The notes beneath the pieces are model-generated. The model was not told the DNA's origin, searched no databases, and saw only the letters and a program-made list of their open reading frames with translations. The position numbers and the translations under genes are program-made. Below, piece after piece: positions 22,531 through 32,000 of a stretch of 32,000 nt of DNA. The stretch is taken from assembly GCF_001652585.1 (NCBI RefSeq), contig NZ_LWLG01000007.1, forward strand, positions 50,498-82,497, written 5' to 3'. The DNA is from Thermosulfurimonas dismutans (GTDB lineage Bacteria > Desulfobacterota > Thermodesulfobacteria > Thermodesulfobacteriales > Thermodesulfobacteriaceae). Position 1 is the first letter of the stretch; each line of letters starts with the position of its first letter.

Positions 22531-22821
22531 TCAAAAAATCATATGATCTCCTTCGGGAAGACGGGTATGTTTACCATACCCCAGATGGATTACTGGGTGC
22601 CGACAGGTCTCGCAGAGACGGTAATAACGTACTTTATCCTCCAGAGCATCAATGATCCCTTCCACCGCTTGGCGCATGACCACAAACTCTTCGGGCGTTA
22701 AACGGCATTCAAAAACGCTGTAGAGGACCCGAATCCCGAAGTCCTCCATTACGCGGGCTACTTTTCTCAGCCTTTTCTCGTCGGCAATGTCGTAGCAGAC
22801 CAGGTAATAGTTTCCGCTCAC
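22531..22821 (-). CDS. cas2: CRISPR-associated endoribonuclease Cas2
   Basis: 96 aa with a GTG start overlapping the upstream stop (GTGA). Contains YLVCYDI (beta1 with catalytic Asp), SVFEC and DKVRYYRL. Confidence 0.9.
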
Positions 22822-23776
22822 AGGATCAATTCCTCCTCGGGTTCCTCTGCGAAATATACCGGGCCGGAGAATTCAAGATTCTTGAGACACTTCCGGCAGA
22901 GGCGGTAGATCCGCACCCGATCCTCCGTGCGCTTGATGAAATCCGCAAGCCAGGAAATAACCTCCTCCAGTTCCTTCTGCGTGAGCCAGCACTCGAACAC
23001 GCTCTTCTGAACCGGTTTTCCATAGTCCTTCAGGAATTTGTGAACCCTCTGTACCGGACGCCATTCCTCCATGAGATCCAGCACCAGGGAAGGTTTTCCG
23101 TAATCCGGGGCGTGCAGGAAACCCAGATAGGGGTCGAGCCCTGCGGTTTCCACCAGGCTCCAGATCCGGGAAAGGAGCAGGGTGTAACCTAGGGAAAGCA
23201 GGGGTTTACAGGATCCCTAGGTGGGCGGCGGGTACGTTCCCGGAATTCAAAACCGGAGCGTTTTGAAAGTATTCCCAGCCCTTCGAAATAATGCCGGGAG
23301 GCCATGCCCTCGAGACCCAAGATCTCGTCAATATCTTTGGCCTTTTCAAGTTCGGTAAGAACGCGTTTAAGGTGAAATATCGGACCTTCCAGGGCCGTTT
23401 CCCCTAGCCTTCGTTTCTGACGGGCCAGGTATTCCCGCTGATTGTGAATTTTTCCGTGTACGAAAGCCCTGGCCAGTTCGAGCCGTTTCCACAGGTTATG
23501 GAAGCTCTGAAACTGGCTTAACCGCAGTTCTATGTTCTTCCCGAGCGGAGGCGAAAGTTTGTCGAGATATTTTCCGGAAAGGGTGAGGAAGTGAACCTCT
23601 ATTCCGCGTTTGAGCAAGGCCTGGAGGGCCGGGGCAGTAAAGTTTACCCTCCCGAAGACCACCACCTGATCCACTTCCGCTAGCCTGACCTCCTTTTTCT
23701 TCTGACCGATTTCCAGCTTGAGCCTTTCTCCTTCCCGCGAGACCTTTAACCCCTGTTCGGTGAGATAAAGGATCAT
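22818..23776 (-). pseudogene. cas1: cas1, frameshifted, with its C-terminal ~80 aa replaced in frame by a Cas2-like segment (cas1-cas2' chimera)
   Basis: The N-terminal 195 codons (MILYLTEQGLKV...LGLEGMASRHYF...RRPPRDPVN) end at a stop at 23189-23191. The canonical continuation [30 protein letters not shown]...LDLMEEWRP lies in another frame, consistent with one base missing near G4 23201-23204. From about 23054 the sequence turns Cas2-like ([22 protein letters not shown]...DRVRIYRLC). Confidence 0.8.
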
Positions 23777-23800: not shown

Positions 23801-24145
23801 GTCGCAATCCCTTCTTAGTGAGGGAAAGTTTTCTCATACATCGAGGATATGAAAGTCGCTCAGCAATTCGCTCGTATGTCGCAATCCCTTCTTAGAGAGG
23901 GAAAGTTTTCTCACTTGCCCTTGAATTTCTAGATGTTTCCACGGCTCTAGGGTCGCAATCCCTTCTTAGTGAGGGAAAGTTTTCTCACTCTTACCGCTTT
24001 GATGTCAAAACCGTTTAGGAGGTGAAACCAGTCGCAATCCCTTCTTAGTGAGGGAAGGTTTTCTCACACTCCTATAGCTGAAGGTAAGCCTGGCTATGTT
24101 CTTACTGAGTCGCAATCCCTTCTTAGTGAGGGAAAGTTTTCTCAC
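23801..24145 (-). CRISPR. CRISPR array of 5 x 37-nt repeats and 4 spacers (40, 37, 42, 41 nt), transcribed on the minus strand
   Basis: Repeats are at 23801-23837, 23878-23914, 23952-23988, 24031-24067 and 24109-24145. The plus-strand consensus is GTCGCAATCCCTTCTTAGTGAGGGAAAGTTTTCTCAC. The reverse complement, GTGAGAAAACTTTCCCTCACTAAGAAGGGATTGCGAC, ends in ATTGCGAC, an 8-nt Cas6-type 5' handle preceded by a TCCCT/AGGGA stem. Variant bases occur at 23837, 23896 and 24057. Confidence 0.95.
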
Positions 24146-24218
24146 TGCATATTTTATAACTTAAGAATCTACAGTATCTTTTAAAGCCGTAAATGATAAG
24201 GATTGAAAATGAATGTTT
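24146..24218 (-). promoter_or_regulatory. Putative CRISPR leader (AT-rich) between the terminator and the first repeat
   Basis: A 73-nt AT-rich segment abuts the consensus repeat on the side predicted by the handle orientation. Candidate TTTACG-16 nt-TAGATT promoter elements are present on the minus strand but are weak matches. Confidence 0.5.
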
Positions 24219-24258
24219 AAAAAAGTGGCTCCCCCGATATCTTCGCTGGGGGAGCCAC
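24219..24258 (-). terminator. Rho-independent terminator insulating the upstream cas/accessory operon from the CRISPR leader
   Basis: Perfect 11-bp GC-rich stem: GTGGCTCCCCC (24225-24235) pairs with GGGGGAGCCAC (24248-24258). The loop is 12 nt, and on the minus strand the hairpin is followed by T6 (24224-24219). Confidence 0.8.
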
Positions 24259-24445
24259 AACATAACAGCCCATAAAATCGTCCAAAATAGATACTGGCAA
24301 TCCTTTACTTAAAAGCACCCTAAAAATGACGATATCAAGCAGGCTTATGAATCCCTCACCAAAAAGGGCACCCTTATCGCCAGTTTTTCAAAGAGCTGAA
24401 TCCTCTTATCCTTTAAAATCAAAAATTTTCGGAAGTGTAAAGGGG

Positions 24446-26026
24446 CTATGCGGATCGAGGGCGAACGATAATTTCCTCGCCCTCTAAGGAGAAAATATAA
24501 TCTCCGACCCGAAGTCTTTGGGGATTTCTTCGGAAATGTCTCCGAAGCTCGTGTTCCACATACCGGAGCCTCTCGCGCAGGTGAAGGTAAACCCGTCCCA
24601 ATTCTGCAGGACGACTATAGTGAAGGGTGAGACGGTCCTCTAAAGTAGGCACCAGTTCGGGATCTATGTGAAGCAGGGGTGAGGGATAGCGTCCCTTCAA
24701 AGCCTCTCCGAAAACGCATCCGCAGGGACGATCCAGAACAAAATCCCGAAACCACATCTCAAGCTTGGCGCAACTTATGGGATTCCTGGGTATTCCCTCG
24801 AGCATTCTTTCTATTCTGTGATAGCTATAATCCGGCGTGCCGGAAAGGATGTGGTGCAACAGCTCACGGCCATTCCTTAGAAAACCCACCGAGAGCATTA
24901 CGACCAGTTTTTCCTCCCGAGAAAGATGTTTTCCGGCCTCGGCTCGCCGGAAAACAAAGTCCAGTACCGGACACGCCCGGCGAAGCTTTAATAATTCAGG
25001 AGGATCTTTCCGGGAGACAGATACCGGCATGGATTTTCGGCAAAAACTTTTTAAGGTTTCAAAAGGTAGTTCAAAGCCCTTCTCCCGCCAACCTACACCC
25101 TCGCCCCTGGTTCCAATTTCGTAGGAATGAAATATTCCTTCACTGGGAAAGGGGAGTCTTTCTTTCAGCGTCTCAAAAAATCGCCTGACCCAGAGGAAAT
25201 AAATCGGCTCGGAGAAAAAGAACCACAACCGGTAGCGAAACGGGCTAACCCGTTCCAGCGCACCCTCAAGCCCCCACCCCCAGGCACCACACCGAAAGGG
25301 CCTCCCGCTTCACAGCTTCAGCCTTAATGGCCAGTAAGCCTCGATTGCGCCGGTTTCGGTCAAGCTCTCGCTCCGGAAGGGCTATAACGAAATAAGCCCC
25401 GTGAAGTTTGTTTTCTTCAGTAAGAGGGAAGTAGATGAGATAGGTCCGCCCCAGAAGGTGCTGTGAAAGTTTTTCCAGAGAAGGGGCTCCCTCTTTGATT
25501 ACCAGAGCCGTCTTTCCGTAAGAGGTAAGATGTAACTCGGCATGAAGGGGTCTTCCACGAAAAAGTCTTCTAAGGGGCTCAGTTCCCGAGGACCGAGATT
25601 TGGAGGATAATAGCGCAACGGAGTCTCGGTAGAAACGCTCTCAAGAGGGCCGGCCACCACGGCGGCCGCTCCGGGACGGCCGAGTTCCAAGAACACCCGG
25701 GCCAGCTTTTGCCGCACGGTTTGCGAATCGGCCAGGCGCAGAACCCGCTGAAATAGCGTGGCCGCCCGACGAAGTTCCCCAAGTTCGTAGGCCACTTCGG
25801 CCCGGGCCAGGAGATAGCGGGACTGATCGGGATCGCGCGAGATGGCAAGATCGTAACACTCCGCCGCCTGGGGCTTTAACCCCAAGGTTTCACAGAGAGC
25901 ACCCCACCGGAAGTACTCCTCGGCGGTCTGCCCGGGACGGAGACGGTGACGGAGGATCAAATCGCGGGCCTTGCCGTCTTGACCTTCGGAAAGGAATTTT
26001 TTGGCCTGATCAAGAAATTTGTTCAC
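24446..26026 (-). pseudogene. TPR-repeat N-terminus fused to a degenerate archaeo-eukaryotic primase (PrimPol/CAPP-like) domain; split into 3 frames by two homopolymer indels
   Basis: Piece A is 26026-25499, with TPR-like repeats. Piece B is open 25640-25269 and has no ATG, GTG or TTG (LFRGRPLHA...HLLGRTYLIYFPL...AYFVIALPE...). Piece C is open from 25309, with the track ORF at 25228-24446 (ALERVSPFRYRLWFFFSEPI...SYEIG...ELPF...Cys-containing C-terminal domain). The joins are restored by +1 T at 25560-25564 and -1 G at 25271-25281. The AEP assignment is from remembered motif order only. Confidence 0.5.
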
Positions 26027-26035
26027 GAATAGGCT

Positions 26036-27310
26036 TTATCTTAGAGATTTTAAGATAAAATTCTGTACATTATTCTTTTTTTCCTTTGAATATCTTATCT
26101 TCAAGCCTTCTTCCGTTTGACGGAGTTCGACGGCGTTCTTTTCCAGACCTCCATGAGCAAAAAAGTTTCTCGGATTTGGAGAATCTGGTTTCCGGCCCTC
26201 AATTTCAGCTAAAAGTTTCCAGTCGAAAGGAAAACCTTTAATACTTTTTAAATTATGCATTTCCGTCCCCAGAATACTTCGGAAAATATTATTTTTCCAA
26301 AAGACCTTTTTGGCGATGCTTTCAAGTTTATGTAGAAAAATCTCCTCTTGGCGGGTCTCTAAAAGATTCTCCTTTTCAAAAAACTTCAGCAAAAGCCAGA
26401 CCAAGGTTAAAACCCGAAATAGAGGAGTTAAACGCGCCCGACGCGTGAGGCGAAGACGGCCTCCTTCTTTGCGGATCTTTATTTCTTTCTCGTAAATGTT
26501 CAGGGCCTCTTTTAAGTGAGAAAAAACTTCTTCCGCGGGAACGAAGAAGGTGGTCAGCATTAGGGGCAAGCCGTAAACCATCCCTCCTAAAAAAGTCAAG
26601 ATTTCTTTAAGCCGGGGTTTCCCTACAACTTTTAATTTTTGTCCATTTTCGTCTACCACCAGCTTCTCAAAAAACCGGGAGCTTACATTTACCTCATACG
26701 GACTAAGCGCAGGGAAACGCGGAAGTTCTTCTATTTCCTCCACCACATGAAGGGTGAGAACAGTTTCGGGACCGCCGGAGACGAAAGGATCGGCATTATA
26801 GGCCACAAATTTTATCGGGGCAAAAAAGCTTACTACCTGAAGGATTTCCTTTACCGCTCGATAAGTGAGGACCGGCATAAAGTTAAGGCCGTGGGTAAGG
26901 TCGAGGTGAACTTCTTTGAAATCGCTTTCATTAAGAAGTCTGGCCAATTCATAGAGGAGGCGGTAATAGTAATCCAAAACCTCTCCCTCAAAAACGCCGT
27001 TTTTGAAATATCCCGTTCCGGGAAGGACCAAAATATCTATTTTCGTTTTGTCCAAGGGAATATGGCAATCTTTCAGAAAATTAAAGATTTTGTCCCTTAC
27101 CGCGGCCTTTGCCTCGGCGTAGTTCGTATTTTCGCGTAGAGAGTCCTTATCCACCAGGGAATCCGCTACCAGGATCACTATGTATTCGGGGTTTAGTGCC
27201 TCAAGGAGGACCTTAAGAGAAGTTTTGGATACGGATTCCACTTCCCCGAAACGATAGGTAACCTCATTCCAGCCAAAAGGATTTCCCCAGGGGGCGATGA
27301 GGAGTTTCAT
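26036..27310 (-). CDS. csx1: Csx1-family CARF-HEPN ribonuclease (DxTHG-motif protein)
   Basis: 424 aa. The N-terminus MKLLIAPWGNP... has a CARF-type fold pattern. Also contains the HLDLTHGLNF (DxTHG) signature and the C-terminal HEPN motif RNFFAHGG (R-x4-H). Confidence 0.8.
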   Translation of the reverse strand: MKLLIAPWGNPFGWNEVTYRFGEVESVSKTSLKVLLEALNPEYIVILVADSLVDKDSLRENTNYAEAKAAVRDKIFNFLKDCHIPLDKTKIDILVLPGTGYFKNGVFEGEVLDYYYRLLYELARLLNESDFKEVHLDLTHGLNFMPVLTYRAVKEILQVVSFFAPIKFVAYNADPFVSGGPETVLTLHVVEEIEELPRFPALSPYEVNVSSRFFEKLVVDENGQKLKVVGKPRLKEILTFLGGMVYGLPLMLTTFFVPAEEVFSHLKEALNIYEKEIKIRKEGGRLRLTRRARLTPLFRVLTLVWLLLKFFEKENLLETRQEEIFLHKLESIAKKVFWKNNIFRSILGTEMHNLKSIKGFPFDWKLLAEIEGRKPDSPNPRNFFAHGGLEKNAVELRQTEEGLKIRYSKEKKNNVQNFILKSLR

Positions 27311-28452: not shown

Positions 28453-28888
28453 AGAGGGACACTTTTAGCGTAAATTTTTGAACAAAAGGGTTCCTCTTTA
28501 GTTCTTCCCGGGTGTAACCAAAAAGATCACAGGGAAGCCCCACTTCGGCAAAATAGTCAAGGTAAGGGCGTTCGGGAAACGGTCCTTCGGCCCTGTTAAG
28601 CACCAACAAGATAACTGCATCGCTTCCGGGGATGGCCCTGCCTTCGGCAAGGGAGCCGAAAAGGCGTACCTCTTCCACCTCTTCGTGATCTCCAAGGAGC
28701 CTGCGTGCGGCCTCCCTGAGTCTGCGCAGGACTTCTTCACAATGGAGCCAAAATATCTTTACAGAACCGTATGATTTCTCCTGCACCACGGACGGCTTCA
28801 CGGGCGTCCTACCTTTCATTTCCCAAGCGGCGTTTTCGAGATCTTTTTCGGCTTGTCTTAACCAATCAGCGCTTCTTTCAGGCATCAC
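28445..28888 (-). CDS. HEPN N-terminal fragment fused to a minimal nucleotidyltransferase (MNT) domain
   Basis: Residues ~6-45 (ADWLRQAEKDLENAAWEMKG...VVQEKSYGSVK) look like HEPN helices 1-2, and no R-x4-6-H motif follows. Residues ~60-147 contain LFGSLAEGRAIPGSDAVILLV, an MNT GS...SD motif that lacks the second Asp. The gene overlaps the CARF-RelE start by 8 nt. Confidence 0.6.
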   Translation of the reverse strand: MMPERSADWLRQAEKDLENAAWEMKGRTPVKPSVVQEKSYGSVKIFWLHCEEVLRRLREAARRLLGDHEEVEEVRLFGSLAEGRAIPGSDAVILLVLNRAEGPFPERPYLDYFAEVGLPCDLFGYTREELKRNPFVQKFTLKVSLYE

Positions 28889-28946
28889 CGCCTCTTGACC
28901 ACCAGTCTGAAGCGTGGATTTTTGGCTAGGGAGGAAAGGTTCACTT

Positions 28947-30179
28947 TTACAAAACTTTTAACTTTAAGCTATCTTTTTCCTCAGCAATAATTACTTTTTC
29001 CTGGCCTTTAGCAGCAATAGTTTCTCCAATTTCGAACCATTTAACCCAGCCAAGAGGCCAAAATTTATTTTGTTGAATTTTCACCAGTCTTCGACTTTTA
29101 GGAGCCATAATCTTTCCTCGATCGTGCCGGAGACGATTCCTGATTTTCTGCCGTAACTCTTCAGGAAGCAACATAAAAATGGTGGTGCTGAGCAGTCCTC
29201 CGCCCCAACCCAGCCGAAACATTTTTCCCGGATAGGGCTTTGCGTAATAATTAGTGGGACCATTACTAAACACCTTTCTTTCGTAATTCCAGAAATCTCT
29301 AAAAAATTCCTGAAGCGTAATCAAAAATTCTTCTATAGTTTTAGGATAAATATCAAAAGGTATTTGCGGGGAGACGTTTTTCTGGAAGTGAGAAAGTAAT
29401 GTCCGGTCAAGAAGAAGTTCTAATTCGTAAAGGTAGCCCTTTGGCAAAGCCTCCACAAATAAAGGCCTTTCTTTAGGAAAAAATTTTCCTCTATGCCAGG
29501 AAAATATTTGAACTTCAAAAAGTCCGGTAGTTCGCTGAAATAAGGACTTGACATCTCTAATTTTTAAAATTCGTAAGTAGTCCGTATGAGGATCGTTAGT
29601 CTGCTCATTTAATCTGAAATTTTGTAGCCAGAAATTTATAATTTTCTTGAAGGGCTCTCTTTTTGAAATTTGATTTTGGCGTAGCACTTGATATATCTTA
29701 TTCAGTAATTTATTTTCGAAAACTTCGGAATCTTCGTATTTTATCTGTTTCAGAATTCTATAAAGTAAAGCCGTCCGGAAAACACCTTTTATACTCGAAG
29801 CCGGAATAAAAGGAATACCAAAAGCATCCCTTATTTGAGATTTAAATTGCTTAAAAGAGCGATTAGTTTTCAGTTCTATTTTTGAGTAAGATATATTAGA
29901 GACTAAATTTTCGTCAATATTTTCTATATATTTCTTAAGAAACTCAACAATGTTTGGTTTTTCTCCTTGTAGCGCCCATGAAACAAATTCATTTATTAGG
30001 TTTTTATTGGCTAAAAATTTACTAAATTTATTTTCGGAAAGAAAATAAACATGATTTTCTACTTTTAAGTATTCAAAAGGCCCGACAAAGAGATTTCTAT
30101 TACTAATATGGAGGGGAGTGTCAATTTGTAAAGCTATCTTCTTTCTTTCCACTATTTTATTTTCAACCATTTTCATCAA
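28947..30179 (-). CDS. csm5: Type III-A RAMP protein Csm5
   Basis: 410 aa. RAMP motif [16 protein letters not shown] and Gly-rich loop [11 protein letters not shown]. The probable ATG at 30176 overlaps the csm4 stop (TGATG). Confidence 0.75.
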
Positions 30180-31156
30180 AATGGAATGGTTAAAGCTAAT
30201 CCATAGCGATATATCTTATGAGACAAACTTCCTAAAGTTACATCTTCAGGGGTAATATCTACTATAGTTCCGTTAAAACTCTCTTTGAGAACCGAACCCT
30301 CCTTTAAAAAGCGTATTCCCTTTCGTTTTAGAGGAAGAGCTATACGGCCGGAGGTTATCCATCCTCTGGAAATGCCGATTTTGTAAGCTTCAAGCCCGTT
30401 TTCTAATCTCGGGATCTCTTCCCCGGAAGGGATAAGCCGAGAAATAAGCACCTTGCAAGGACTTGAGTGGCTTAGCAATTCTTCAAATTGTTTTTTAAGC
30501 TCTTCCTCCGGTTCTTCTACCTCAAAAACTCCGCAACCGTAGGTCCTTTCCCCTCCCAATCCGATTTCCCCTAAAAGGGCAAGACCTTTCATAAAAAGGT
30601 TTACGCCTTCCTGATTTCCAACCACCACTCCCCAAAGTCCCCCTTCTTTCGCATATTGGATATATCCTTCGTGAAAGAGATTGCTTTCCAGACCTTCTCT
30701 ATCCAGAGCTACACGGGGGCGAATAATTCTTTTATATGCCCGTTGATAACGTTCTTTCTGGATAGTGTAAGCAGTCTCAATTATTGAAGAAGAAACTTCT
30801 CCTTTTAACCATTCTTTATAAAGATTTAAAGGTACCCAGTCCGTCTTTTTGAAGATCTTGAAAATATTAGACCGTTCTTCCTTGGCAGGCACAGCGAAAT
30901 GAGGCTTAGGAAGAAAATAGCAGGTTTGATAATATATAAACAGGCTTGATATTCGAAACGGGGGACTTTTTAAAAATTTCTCGCATATTTCGGAAGCCTT
31001 TTCTATTCCCCAGAAAGCGCTTACCGCATTTAGCCAAGCCGAAAACAAAGTATCCGACCCTACCCACTCGGAAACACTTTCTAAATCTATTCCAGTCTCC
31101 CCGAAATGCGTAAATCCTTTAAATTTCAACTTGAAAATTTTATATTTCATAACCAA
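30176..31156 (-). CDS. csm4: Type III-A RAMP protein Csm4 (Cas5-like subunit)
   Basis: 326 aa. The N-terminus reads [15 protein letters not shown]...[13 protein letters not shown], and the Gly-rich motif is [14 protein letters not shown]. The ATG at 31150 is an alternative to the TTG at 31156. Either start overlaps the PIN gene stop. Confidence 0.8.
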
Positions 31157-31583
31157 CTTTTATCATCAATTCTTGAGTAGAGATTACATCCTCAAACCCT
31201 TTTTCCTTTAAACCTTTGAATAGTTTTTTATCTCCAGTCCATAGAAGCGCTTTAAGCTCTATAGCCAAAGCTACAAACGGAGTATCGCTTTCGTCTATCT
31301 CTTTACAGAGTTGCCAAGCTTTTTGATAAGCTTCTTTAGAAATATATCTTTCATTTACAAATTCGATCTCTTTTATGATTTGATGTACAAAATATTCTAA
31401 TTGCTCAGGTTCAAATTTAGTATGTTTTATAATCTTACTTTTAAGACTCAGCAACTCTGTAATAGCAGAATTGCAGGAGAAAAGATCAAAAATTTGTGAT
31501 GTTATTATTTGTCGTATGTGACCTGTTGCTGACAATAAAGCCGAAAATATTATATTGGTATCCACTACAATTTTAATCTTCAC
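31140..31583 (-). CDS. PIN-domain toxin (VapC-like, PIN_3-type)
   Basis: 147 aa with a GTG start. The acidic residue series is IVVDTNI, ITELL, DESDTPFVALA and WTGDKKL. Confidence 0.8.
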   Translation of the reverse strand: MKIKIVVDTNIIFSALLSATGHIRQIITSQIFDLFSCNSAITELLSLKSKIIKHTKFEPEQLEYFVHQIIKEIEFVNERYISKEAYQKAWQLCKEIDESDTPFVALAIELKALLWTGDKKLFKGLKEKGFEDVISTQELMIKVGYEI

Positions 31584-31812
31584 TTAATATGCCTTTCTCT
31601 ATTAAAATTTTCTTTCCTTCTTTTTCCCACCATGCTCTTTTAGCCTGATCAGCTAAATCATTTATCTCTTTTTCTGATAATTTTATTTGTGTTGCTATTT
31701 CTTCCATTTCTAAACGCTTTAACAACTGTCTGATTACCTCCTTGGGAACAGTTTTGGGTATTTCTATAATAAAACTCTCTGCATTTTCTTTAAATTTAAT
31801 ATTTAAAGACAT
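31573..31812 (-). CDS. Putative antitoxin cognate to the PIN toxin
   Basis: The 79-aa ORF overlaps the PIN start by 11 nt, the classic antitoxin-toxin arrangement. Its SD (GGAGG) is formed by the last codons of csm3. No family was recognised. Confidence 0.5.
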   Translation of the reverse strand: MSLNIKFKENAESFIIEIPKTVPKEVIRQLLKRLEMEEIATQIKLSEKEINDLADQAKRAWWEKEGKKILIEKGILSED

Positions 31813-31813
31813 T

Positions 31814-32000
31814 TTAACCTCCAGAATTTTTAAATTTTTGATGAATATTTTCTATAATTCTACCAAACTCTTTCAGTTCAACTTTTTCATGGTTTTCTAT
31901 TTGAAGTTCCTTAACTTCACCGTTTTCAAATTTTTTTCCGGTAATTTTTATATCGTGGATTTTTACCTGGCCGTAACCCCTAGAGCCGTGTCCCCCCAGA
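31814..32000 (-). CDS. csm3: Type III-A RAMP protein Csm3, C-terminal 61 codons (5' part beyond window)
   Basis: My own translation of the minus strand from 31999 gives LGGHGSRGYGQVKIHDIKITGKKFENGEVKEL...KFKNSGG, with a stop at 31816-31814. GG-GSRGYG is the conserved C-terminal Csm3 motif. The ORF is absent from the track because it has no start in the window. Confidence 0.7.
   Translation of the reverse strand, partial: LGGHGSRGYGQVKIHDIKITGKKFENGEVKELQIENHEKVELKEFGRIIENIHQKFKNSGG

Follow-up and report, generated by a model that had tools for sequence, protein, structure and literature searches.

The 32,000-nucleotide stretch of the Thermosulfurimonas dismutans genome analysed here (contig NZ_LWLG01000007.1, positions 50,498 to 82,497; hereafter the window) contains a type III-A CRISPR locus in which the genes and elements are ordered csm4-csm5-...-csx1-CAPP-leader-array-cas1-cas2a-cas2b. 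The subject of this analysis is the gene at 26026-24446 on the minus strand, a broken gene for a CRISPR-associated primase-polymerase (CAPP). An initial annotation, made from the sequence alone, had placed it between the effector genes and the CRISPR leader, and it does lie between csx1 and the leader and array, near cas1-cas2, which is the canonical position for CAPP. The positions of the features are listed in Table 1.

The interval is covered by three minus-strand frames, and both this tiling and all the peptides quoted in the initial annotation were reproduced by the list of open reading frames (ORFs) and by six-frame translation. Pieces A and C share one frame, and piece B lies between two compensating frame changes. 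The frame of piece B is open over 25640-25266 and its only start-like codons are three GTGs (25313, 25292, and 25277) at most 16 codons from its end, so the earlier remark that the middle piece has no ATG, GTG or TTG is right in effect and wrong to the letter. A single uninterrupted ORF of the length typical of the family (531-609 aa) is not present in the window; two frame changes and a 105-nucleotide (nt) deletion were found instead.

The frame changes had been attributed to two compensating indels in homopolymers, an A5 run (25560-25564) and a G-rich stretch (25271-25281). Both runs are present and both frame changes are real, but the positions and natures proposed for the indels were partly wrong. 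In a frame-aware alignment to three intact homologues (P0001, P0002, and P0003), the first shift was placed near 25581/25580 (between ct and gag, giving RELEPLRRLFRGRPL) with two of the three and at about 25566 with the third; the T5 run itself is a possible site, yet with weaker support than 25581. The second shift was mapped to 25280-25286 by the same alignment. The metagenome contigs L014 and L015 are in frame through this site (ALSVWRRVLGWGLEGALER; GTGTGGCGCCGGGTTTTGGGG = ALSVWRRVLGWG) and the window is 5 nt short there, which ruled out an extra G and superseded another candidate, an 11-nt deletion with a 6-nt duplication. The two indels do not suffice to restore the gene, since alignment with 13 homologues revealed a further, in-frame deletion of about 105 nt, the largest of the lesions. 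It removes the block LGIHPxTLERSLFVDxxGxPYPEQLxFLKRIxPxS between GFELP and FETLKSF, which is kept in all 13 homologues, holds six invariant residues (L, G, R, F, P, and Q) and includes the conserved LPLG.H..T.ERS.F. The interval 24446-26026 is a true pseudogene with three disabling lesions (-1, -5, and -105 nt).

Table 1. Features of the CAPP pseudogene and of the adjoining CRISPR adaptation region (window positions).
Feature	Position	Strand	Description	Basis
Piece A	26026-25499	-	175 aa, GTG start	ORF list; deposited as hypothetical protein OAQ20757
Piece C	25228-24446	-	260 aa, TTG start	ORF list; deposited as hypothetical protein OAQ20756 / TDIS_1212
Pseudogene segment 1	25582..26026	-	GTG start, three TPR repeats and linker; ancestral residues ~1-148, original frame	ORF list; Pfam TPR_2, TPR_1, TPR_16; aligns to residues 1-148 of P0001 and P0003
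Lesion 1	25580..25581	-	one base lost (ctN gag to ct gag), frame shifted	frame-aware dynamic-programming alignment
Pseudogene segment 2	25283..25579	-	N-terminal half of AEP-like domain (LFRGR, HLLG, FVIALPE strand in place of DxD)	read in a different frame from segments 1 and 3, without a usable start codon
Lesion 2	25282..25283	-	5-nt deletion (GGGTT-like), back to original frame; private to window lineage	DNA alignment with metagenome contigs L014 and L015
Pseudogene segment 3	25064..25281	-	second half of AEP-like domain (ALER..PFRYRLWFFF, Arg at His226 position; GWRE motif)	alignments
Lesion 3	25063..25064 (about)	-	in-frame deletion of 35 codons (~105 nt)	protein alignment columns 354-388; frame-aware alignment
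Pseudogene segment 4	24446..25062	-	linker, PriCT-like C-terminal domain, four invariant Cys (RACPV, ISCAK, PCGCVF), YPSPLLH, then stop codon	NF040561 positions 357-509 matched
CRISPR leader	24146..24445	-	A+T-rich; 95% identical in metagenome contig L015	sequence; blastn
CRISPR array	23801..24145	-	5 repeats of 37 nt and 4 spacers; repeat end ATTGCGAC on minus strand	repeat search, family D1
cas1 pseudogene fused to truncated cas2a	22818..23776	-		tblastn with intact Cas1 and Cas2 of L009
cas2b	22531..22821	-	apparently intact, 96 aa	sequence comparison

The suggestion that the gene is CAPP-like was borne out by profile search, by structure comparison and by its intact relatives. With the two indels repaired as first proposed, the 526-aa protein matched NCBIfam NF040561 (CRISPR-associated primase-polymerase type A1) with an E-value of 4e-59 and 200.5 bits, the curated cut-off being 200 bits. 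The score was 204.9 bits with the improved repair and 263.3 bits when the 35 residues were put back, by which two matched stretches became one full-length stretch, while the unrepaired pieces scored only 125 and 46 bits. The thirteen full-length homologues (531-583 aa, 34-75% identical) are single ORFs, and all of them carry TPR and AEP-TOTE domains and match NF040561 over its full length (best E-value 2e-133; 274.8 bits for P0003). The family profile matched the crystallised Prim-Pol domain of the Marinitoga CAPP (7nqd/7nqf) with an E-value of about 5e-21 over 220 residues, and the AlphaFold2 model of P0003 (pLDDT 86.4) had 7nqe, 7nqf, 7p9j, and 7nqd as its top Foldseek matches (TM-score 0.84 on the target, E-value 3e-11, 20% identity). 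The AEP/Prim-Pol fold is thus present at the level of the family, and in the window copy it is interrupted by the 35-codon deletion.

The reading of piece A as TPR-like agrees with Pfam matches to TPR_2, TPR_1, and TPR_16 at residues 35-101 of the repaired protein; these matches are marginal. In the P0003 model, eight helices span residues 2-124, and Foldseek also recovers TPR structures. The C-terminal domain is PriCT-like, with four invariant Cys and YPSPLLH, and its Cys columns are common to the DDH-type relatives where those reach this domain. A TOTE conflict-system primase was also considered and rejected: the AEP-TOTE model (PF22548) gave only 12.2 bits (E-value 0.14) against a cut-off of 27, and the neighbouring genes are only cas, csm, csx, and toxin-antitoxin genes. 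The three-domain arrangement is that of CAPP_A type 1 or 'CAPP-TPR' (Zabrady et al., 2021; PMC8211822), which consists of an N-terminal TPR, an AEP domain and a Cys-containing PriCT-like C-terminal domain and is found beside the array, cas1, and cas2. The initial annotation had known of no TPR-AEP fusion in a CRISPR locus; this is overturned, since CAPP-TPR is the archetypal published architecture of the family.

The substitution of the catalytic motifs, in contrast, was correctly recognised. The motif I strand AAYDIDIKK of the Marinitoga piezophila protein MpCAPP aligns to GAYFVIALPER of segment 2, so that V and A take the DxD positions in the window copy, and R takes the His position; in the E260 column no acidic residue is conserved in the subclade to which it belongs. 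Taken together, the gene is predicted with a probability of roughly 0.85 to be a recently inactivated CAPP type A1 (CAPP-TPR) pseudogene, with a TPR domain, an AEP/Prim-Pol fold and a four-Cys PriCT-like C-terminal domain, whose catalytic triad had been lost ancestrally.

The timing of the inactivation was assessed from environmental copies. At the nucleotide level, L014 and L015 share 92-97% identity with the window gene; both metagenome contigs are intact at the site of the 5-nt deletion but lack, within the CAPP gene, 139 nt (window positions 25587-25449) and 271 nt (25121-24851). At least six contigs encode the resulting out-of-frame product of 164-165 aa, and the pieces differ in their truncation from those of the window, the A pieces being 165 aa with an out-of-frame tail and the C piece 119 aa. 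The dN/dS (ratio of non-synonymous to synonymous change) between the window and the environmental copies was 0.27 (22 non-synonymous and 26 synonymous differences), equal to that of the csx1 control, and the lesions do not overlap, indicating that inactivation was recent and independent. Since near-identical environmental copies carry different and larger deletions, the decay is biological, recent and parallel. It is also local, because 24 consecutive long ORFs tile 28-22496 with no obvious breaks and the lesions are thus concentrated in the CRISPR locus. Compared with L014 and L015, the locus is a mosaic over 24111-26099: the block from CAPP to the leader is 92-97% identical (dS about 0.10), dS is about 0.72 in the adjoining csx1 and saturated in csm5, and the boundary of similarity lies just upstream of the CAPP start.

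The neighbouring adaptation genes have decayed as well. Residues 1-196 of Cas1 are encoded at 23776-23204 and, in a different frame, residues 208-247 at 23171-23052, while Cas1 has lost its C-terminal ~98 residues and Cas2a its first ~22 to deletion, the frame entering cas2a at residue ~23. Pfam Cas_Cas1 covers only positions 1-189 of 283 in this fragment, which has been deposited as 'Cas1' OAQ20755 (195 aa). The three lesions in the CAPP gene, the destruction of cas1 and the other deletions in near-identical environmental copies together show that no functional product is made from 24446-26026 and that the adaptation module of the locus is dead; the array of five repeats is presumably frozen. 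The array's 37-nt repeat (plus strand, GTCGCAATCCCTTCTTAGTGAGGGAAAGTTTTCTCAC) differs only slightly from one reported with 12 spacers in Thermosulfurimonas sp. F29 (PMC9676032).

CAPP and cas1-cas2 are associated as an operon in the type III locus of the window, and the same layout is seen in seven related loci. In every related locus with enough flanking sequence (L003, L004, L005, L006, L009, L011, and L012), a CAPP gene of the same triad-less kind adjoins cas1-cas2a-cas2b or has only an array in between, and type III-A csm genes are near it in L004, L005, L007, and L009. Two cas2 paralogues follow cas1 in each of the seven and in the window (22531-23054). An extra gene of 364 or 408 aa lies inside the adaptation operon of L009 and L012, that of L009 encoding a tandem coiled-coil repeat protein; the candidate array in L009 (8840-9187) was a false positive of a crude array finder and corresponds to this tandem-repeat gene.

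To place the catalytic substitutions in the family, an exhaustive profile search was performed, which gave 431 relatives at E <= 1e-30, and 152 representatives were aligned with the MpCAPP domain. This search was used for the DDH-type relatives because a scan of genome contigs with a pattern around WFFF.EP.HF is biased to the triad-less proteins and did not return Marinitoga. The motif III column was unreliable in the alignment anchored on the hidden Markov model, and re-alignment with MAFFT placed the conserved acidic residue at E260 rather than D258. In 96 representatives, D177 and D179 are Asp and H226 is His in 100%, and E260 is acidic in 99%, whereas in another 52 the corresponding columns are acidic in only 6%, 4%, and 40% (D177, D179, and E260) and H226 is replaced by Arg in 52/52. 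Four further sequences, even more degenerate, nest in the second group, which brings it to 56 of the 152 representative clusters. The triad-retaining and triad-less groups are reciprocally monophyletic in a midpoint-rooted neighbour-joining tree.

The triad-less group has also lost the motif II loop S-G-x-K-G-x-H, F262-P263, and K277. It retains LF.GR, H153..G156, E218, W.F, PLG, F292, Q303 and the four-Cys C-terminal domain, and it has gained a GWxE motif in which W315 and E317 are ~88% conserved. In Prim-Pols, the metals used in catalysis are held by acidic residues in motifs I and III, and the nucleotide site is made up by motif II (PMC10345425); in MpCAPP the catalytic residues are D177 and D179, the D177A/D179A mutant being inactive (PMC8211822). 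The members of the clade are intact ORFs of ~565 aa from several phyla, spanning Thermodesulfobacteriota, Aquificota and Desulfobacterota-type metagenome-assembled genomes and making up about one third of the representative clusters nearest the window gene. Because the substitutions are common to every intact homologue and to a monophyletic clade, they are not decay of the window copy: the ancestor of this CAPP-A1 clade had already lost the DxD, the motif II His and the motif III Glu. The initial annotation had offered a decaying accessory or an exapted inactive AEP as alternatives, and each applies at its own level, with a scaffold exapted in the clade and a decaying copy at the window locus. 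No description of an inactive CAPP or AEP in type III loci, or of the triad-less clade, was found in the literature searched, and the parts of the supplements of the CAPP paper (PMC8211822) that were available mention neither Thermosulfurimonas nor Thermodesulfatator. Many DDH-type relatives (among P0047-P0161) reach 930-1050 aa, and their CAPP-like part begins near residue 350, so they carry a large N-terminal fusion; these are possibly the published RT-CAPP type (RT, reverse transcriptase).

The role that we favour for the clade, with some confidence, is that of an ancient 'pseudo-primase' branch of CAPP-TPR, which would have lost the Prim-Pol site, remained under purifying selection tied to cas1-cas2a-cas2b, and served as a non-catalytic subunit of the spacer integrase. 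MpCAPP binds Cas1 in two-hybrid and pull-down experiments, and its TPR and C-terminal domain are separable interaction modules (PMC8211822); this interaction and the pattern of retained and lost residues point to a non-catalytic partner of Cas1-Cas2. In intact relatives, the triad-less protein would probably be a non-catalytic subunit of the Cas1-Cas2 integrase, docking onto Cas1 through its TPR and AEP part as MpCAPP does. Nucleic acid may be held by the retained DNA-binding elements (LF.GR, H..G, and PLG), by the Arg fixed at the former nucleotide-phosphate site and by the Cys-rich C-terminal domain, with gap filling left to host polymerases. Prespacer or leader handling and assembly of the integrase are candidate non-catalytic roles. 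For CAPP in general, DNA primase/polymerase activity has been assayed only for MpCAPP, MsCAPP, and DbCAPP, and a role in spacer acquisition is still only 'implicated' (PMC8211822).

Several points weigh against the picture of a dead copy from a non-catalytic clade, and they are taken up here with the explanations that they favour. The genome assembly is based on 454 sequencing at 35x (PMC9676032), the position of lesion 1 is ambiguous (25581 or ~25566), and the first shift lies at most ~20 nt from the T5 run; this lesion could in principle be a 454 sequencing error. Among the lesions, only the single-base one could be such an artefact. The 5-nt and 105-nt deletions are not homopolymer miscalls, the neighbouring cas1 is short by ~120 codons, the gene is also broken in independent metagenome assemblies, and the other genes over 22 kb of the window look uninterrupted, so it is very improbable that the frame breaks are errors of a draft assembly and that the gene is intact in the organism. 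Programmed ribosomal frameshifting, which would decode the three frames into one protein, can be given next to no credence: the shifts do compensate (-1 then +1 in effect) and one is near a T-run, but every intact homologue is a single ORF, the environmental copies are in frame at the second site, the recoded product would still lack the conserved 35-residue block, and the data are explained without a slippery site and structure signal. It is improbable, too, that the gene was split rather than lost, with a stand-alone TPR piece A and/or Cys-rich C-terminal piece C (or a 194-aa version) still produced and serving, for instance, to bind Cas1 or DNA. Such an outcome would fit the length of pieces A and C, which are long ORFs with start codons, the separable TPR and C-terminal modules of MpCAPP, and the C-terminal ~134 codons, which are open in both decayed lineages with two non-synonymous against five synonymous differences. 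These counts are tiny, however, and a low dN/dS fits recent inactivation equally; the TTG start of piece C falls inside a beta-strand of the AEP fold, the 35-residue block is missing, the pieces are truncated differently in the environmental copies, and the presumed partner Cas1 is itself destroyed. There is a small chance of residual function in the C-terminal segment.

Other points concern the clade. The neighbour-joining tree that separates the two groups is midpoint-rooted and without support values, the loss of DNA synthesis in the triad-less proteins is predicted from sequence only, and the scaffold mechanism extrapolates from the two-hybrid and pull-down data for MpCAPP, an active relative only ~20% identical. 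An acidic residue is kept at E260 in ~40% of the clade, and the invariant Arg and the gained GWxE could form a new, unrecognised active site. The triad-less proteins, and the ancestor of the window copy, might then still be enzymes, with an active site re-wired around the invariant Arg, the Glu of GWxE, and E218 for nucleotidyl transfer or another nucleic-acid reaction. The fixation of Arg at the His226 position throughout the 52, the conservation of W315 and E317, the retention of E218, and the long-term purifying selection and tight cas1 linkage are consistent with this possibility. On the other hand, both Asp of the DxD, whose mutation abolishes the activity of MpCAPP, have given way to non-acidic residues that vary, motif II has lost its whole loop, F262-P263 after E260 and K277 are gone too, and two-metal nucleotidyl transfer without such ligands would be unprecedented in the Prim-Pol superfamily as reviewed in PMC10345425. 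A re-wired enzyme is therefore considered unlikely, if by no means negligible, and the loss of catalysis with retention of a structural role is preferred.

Compared with known systems, the window family agrees with the CAPP-TPR proteins (Marinitoga piezophila and Marinitoga sp. 1137; NF040561; PDB 7nqd, 7nqe, 7nqf, and 7p9j) in its three-domain architecture, its place in a type III locus next to the array, cas1, and cas2, the full-length NCBIfam match and the superposition of the Prim-Pol domain (TM-score 0.84). It differs from them in that its AEP domain is only ~20% identical to that of Marinitoga, in that the whole triad-less clade is without D177, D179, H226, E260, the motif II loop and K277 and has the invariant Arg and GWxE instead, and in that the loci of the clade carry two cas2 paralogues; the window copy is, in addition, a pseudogene. 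The AEP-TOTE family (Pfam PF22548) is the nearest Pfam model, and the intact homologues carry precomputed PF22548 matches, so the AEP domains are related; however, the repaired protein reaches only the 12.2 bits given above, the context in the window is CRISPR adaptation, and the TOTE partner genes are absent. CAPP-RT, CAPP-helicase and CAPP_B (Bacteroidetes VirE_N-like) are likewise CRISPR-associated Prim-Pols beside cas1-cas2, but they have other fusions (RT, helicase or none), have no TPR, and keep the catalytic triad. The 930-1050-aa DDH-type relatives may be of one of these types. Many type III loci have no adaptation genes of their own. The window resembles degraded type III adaptation modules in the decay of cas1 and cas2, here together with the accessory CAPP, beside a present effector cassette and a short array, and it differs from them in that decay has been caught in progress, with near-identical copies from separate samples carrying different deletions that arose in parallel.

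Further features were observed at 28746-32000. The HEPN gene at 28746-28888, part of a HEPN/nucleotidyltransferase pair, has lost residues ~26-108 through an internal deletion. Its first 25 residues are 100% identical to the HEPN protein of L007, while the neighbouring CAPP and csx1 are only 60-75% identical, which suggests that the pair is a mobile toxin-antitoxin cassette. A PIN_2 toxin gene (147 aa) and a 79-aa upstream partner occupy 31140-31812, directly upstream of csm4 and overlapping its start, at the place expected for csm3. With L007 queries, no csm3, csm2 or cas10 was detectable in the window. The G+C content is 0.32-0.39 over csm4, csm5, and the PIN gene (29000-32000), compared with ~0.5 elsewhere and 0.56 over CAPP, and the csm5 next to the closest CAPP homologue shares only 22% identity with that of the window. 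It appears that the effector module and the adaptation module came from different sources.

For T. dismutans itself, the window gene is an ordinary, dead copy, and the main use of the result is the correction of annotation: OAQ20756 and OAQ20757, deposited as hypothetical proteins, are both parts of a single CAPP pseudogene, and the 'Cas1' OAQ20755 is also a fragment. The result further shows that this type III-A locus has a frozen adaptation arm. A noteworthy by-product is the triad-less CAPP clade. Its members have discarded every residue needed for synthesis while retaining the TPR, fold, DNA-binding elements and Cys domain, which argues that part of the job of CAPP is structural. The database name 'primase-polymerase' for these proteins probably over-annotates an inactive enzyme. 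Members such as Thermodesulfatator indicus Thein_1350 are natural mutants with which a structural role can be tested, and if this reading is true, the triad-less clade would be a natural separation-of-function variant showing a non-catalytic role of CAPP in adaptation.

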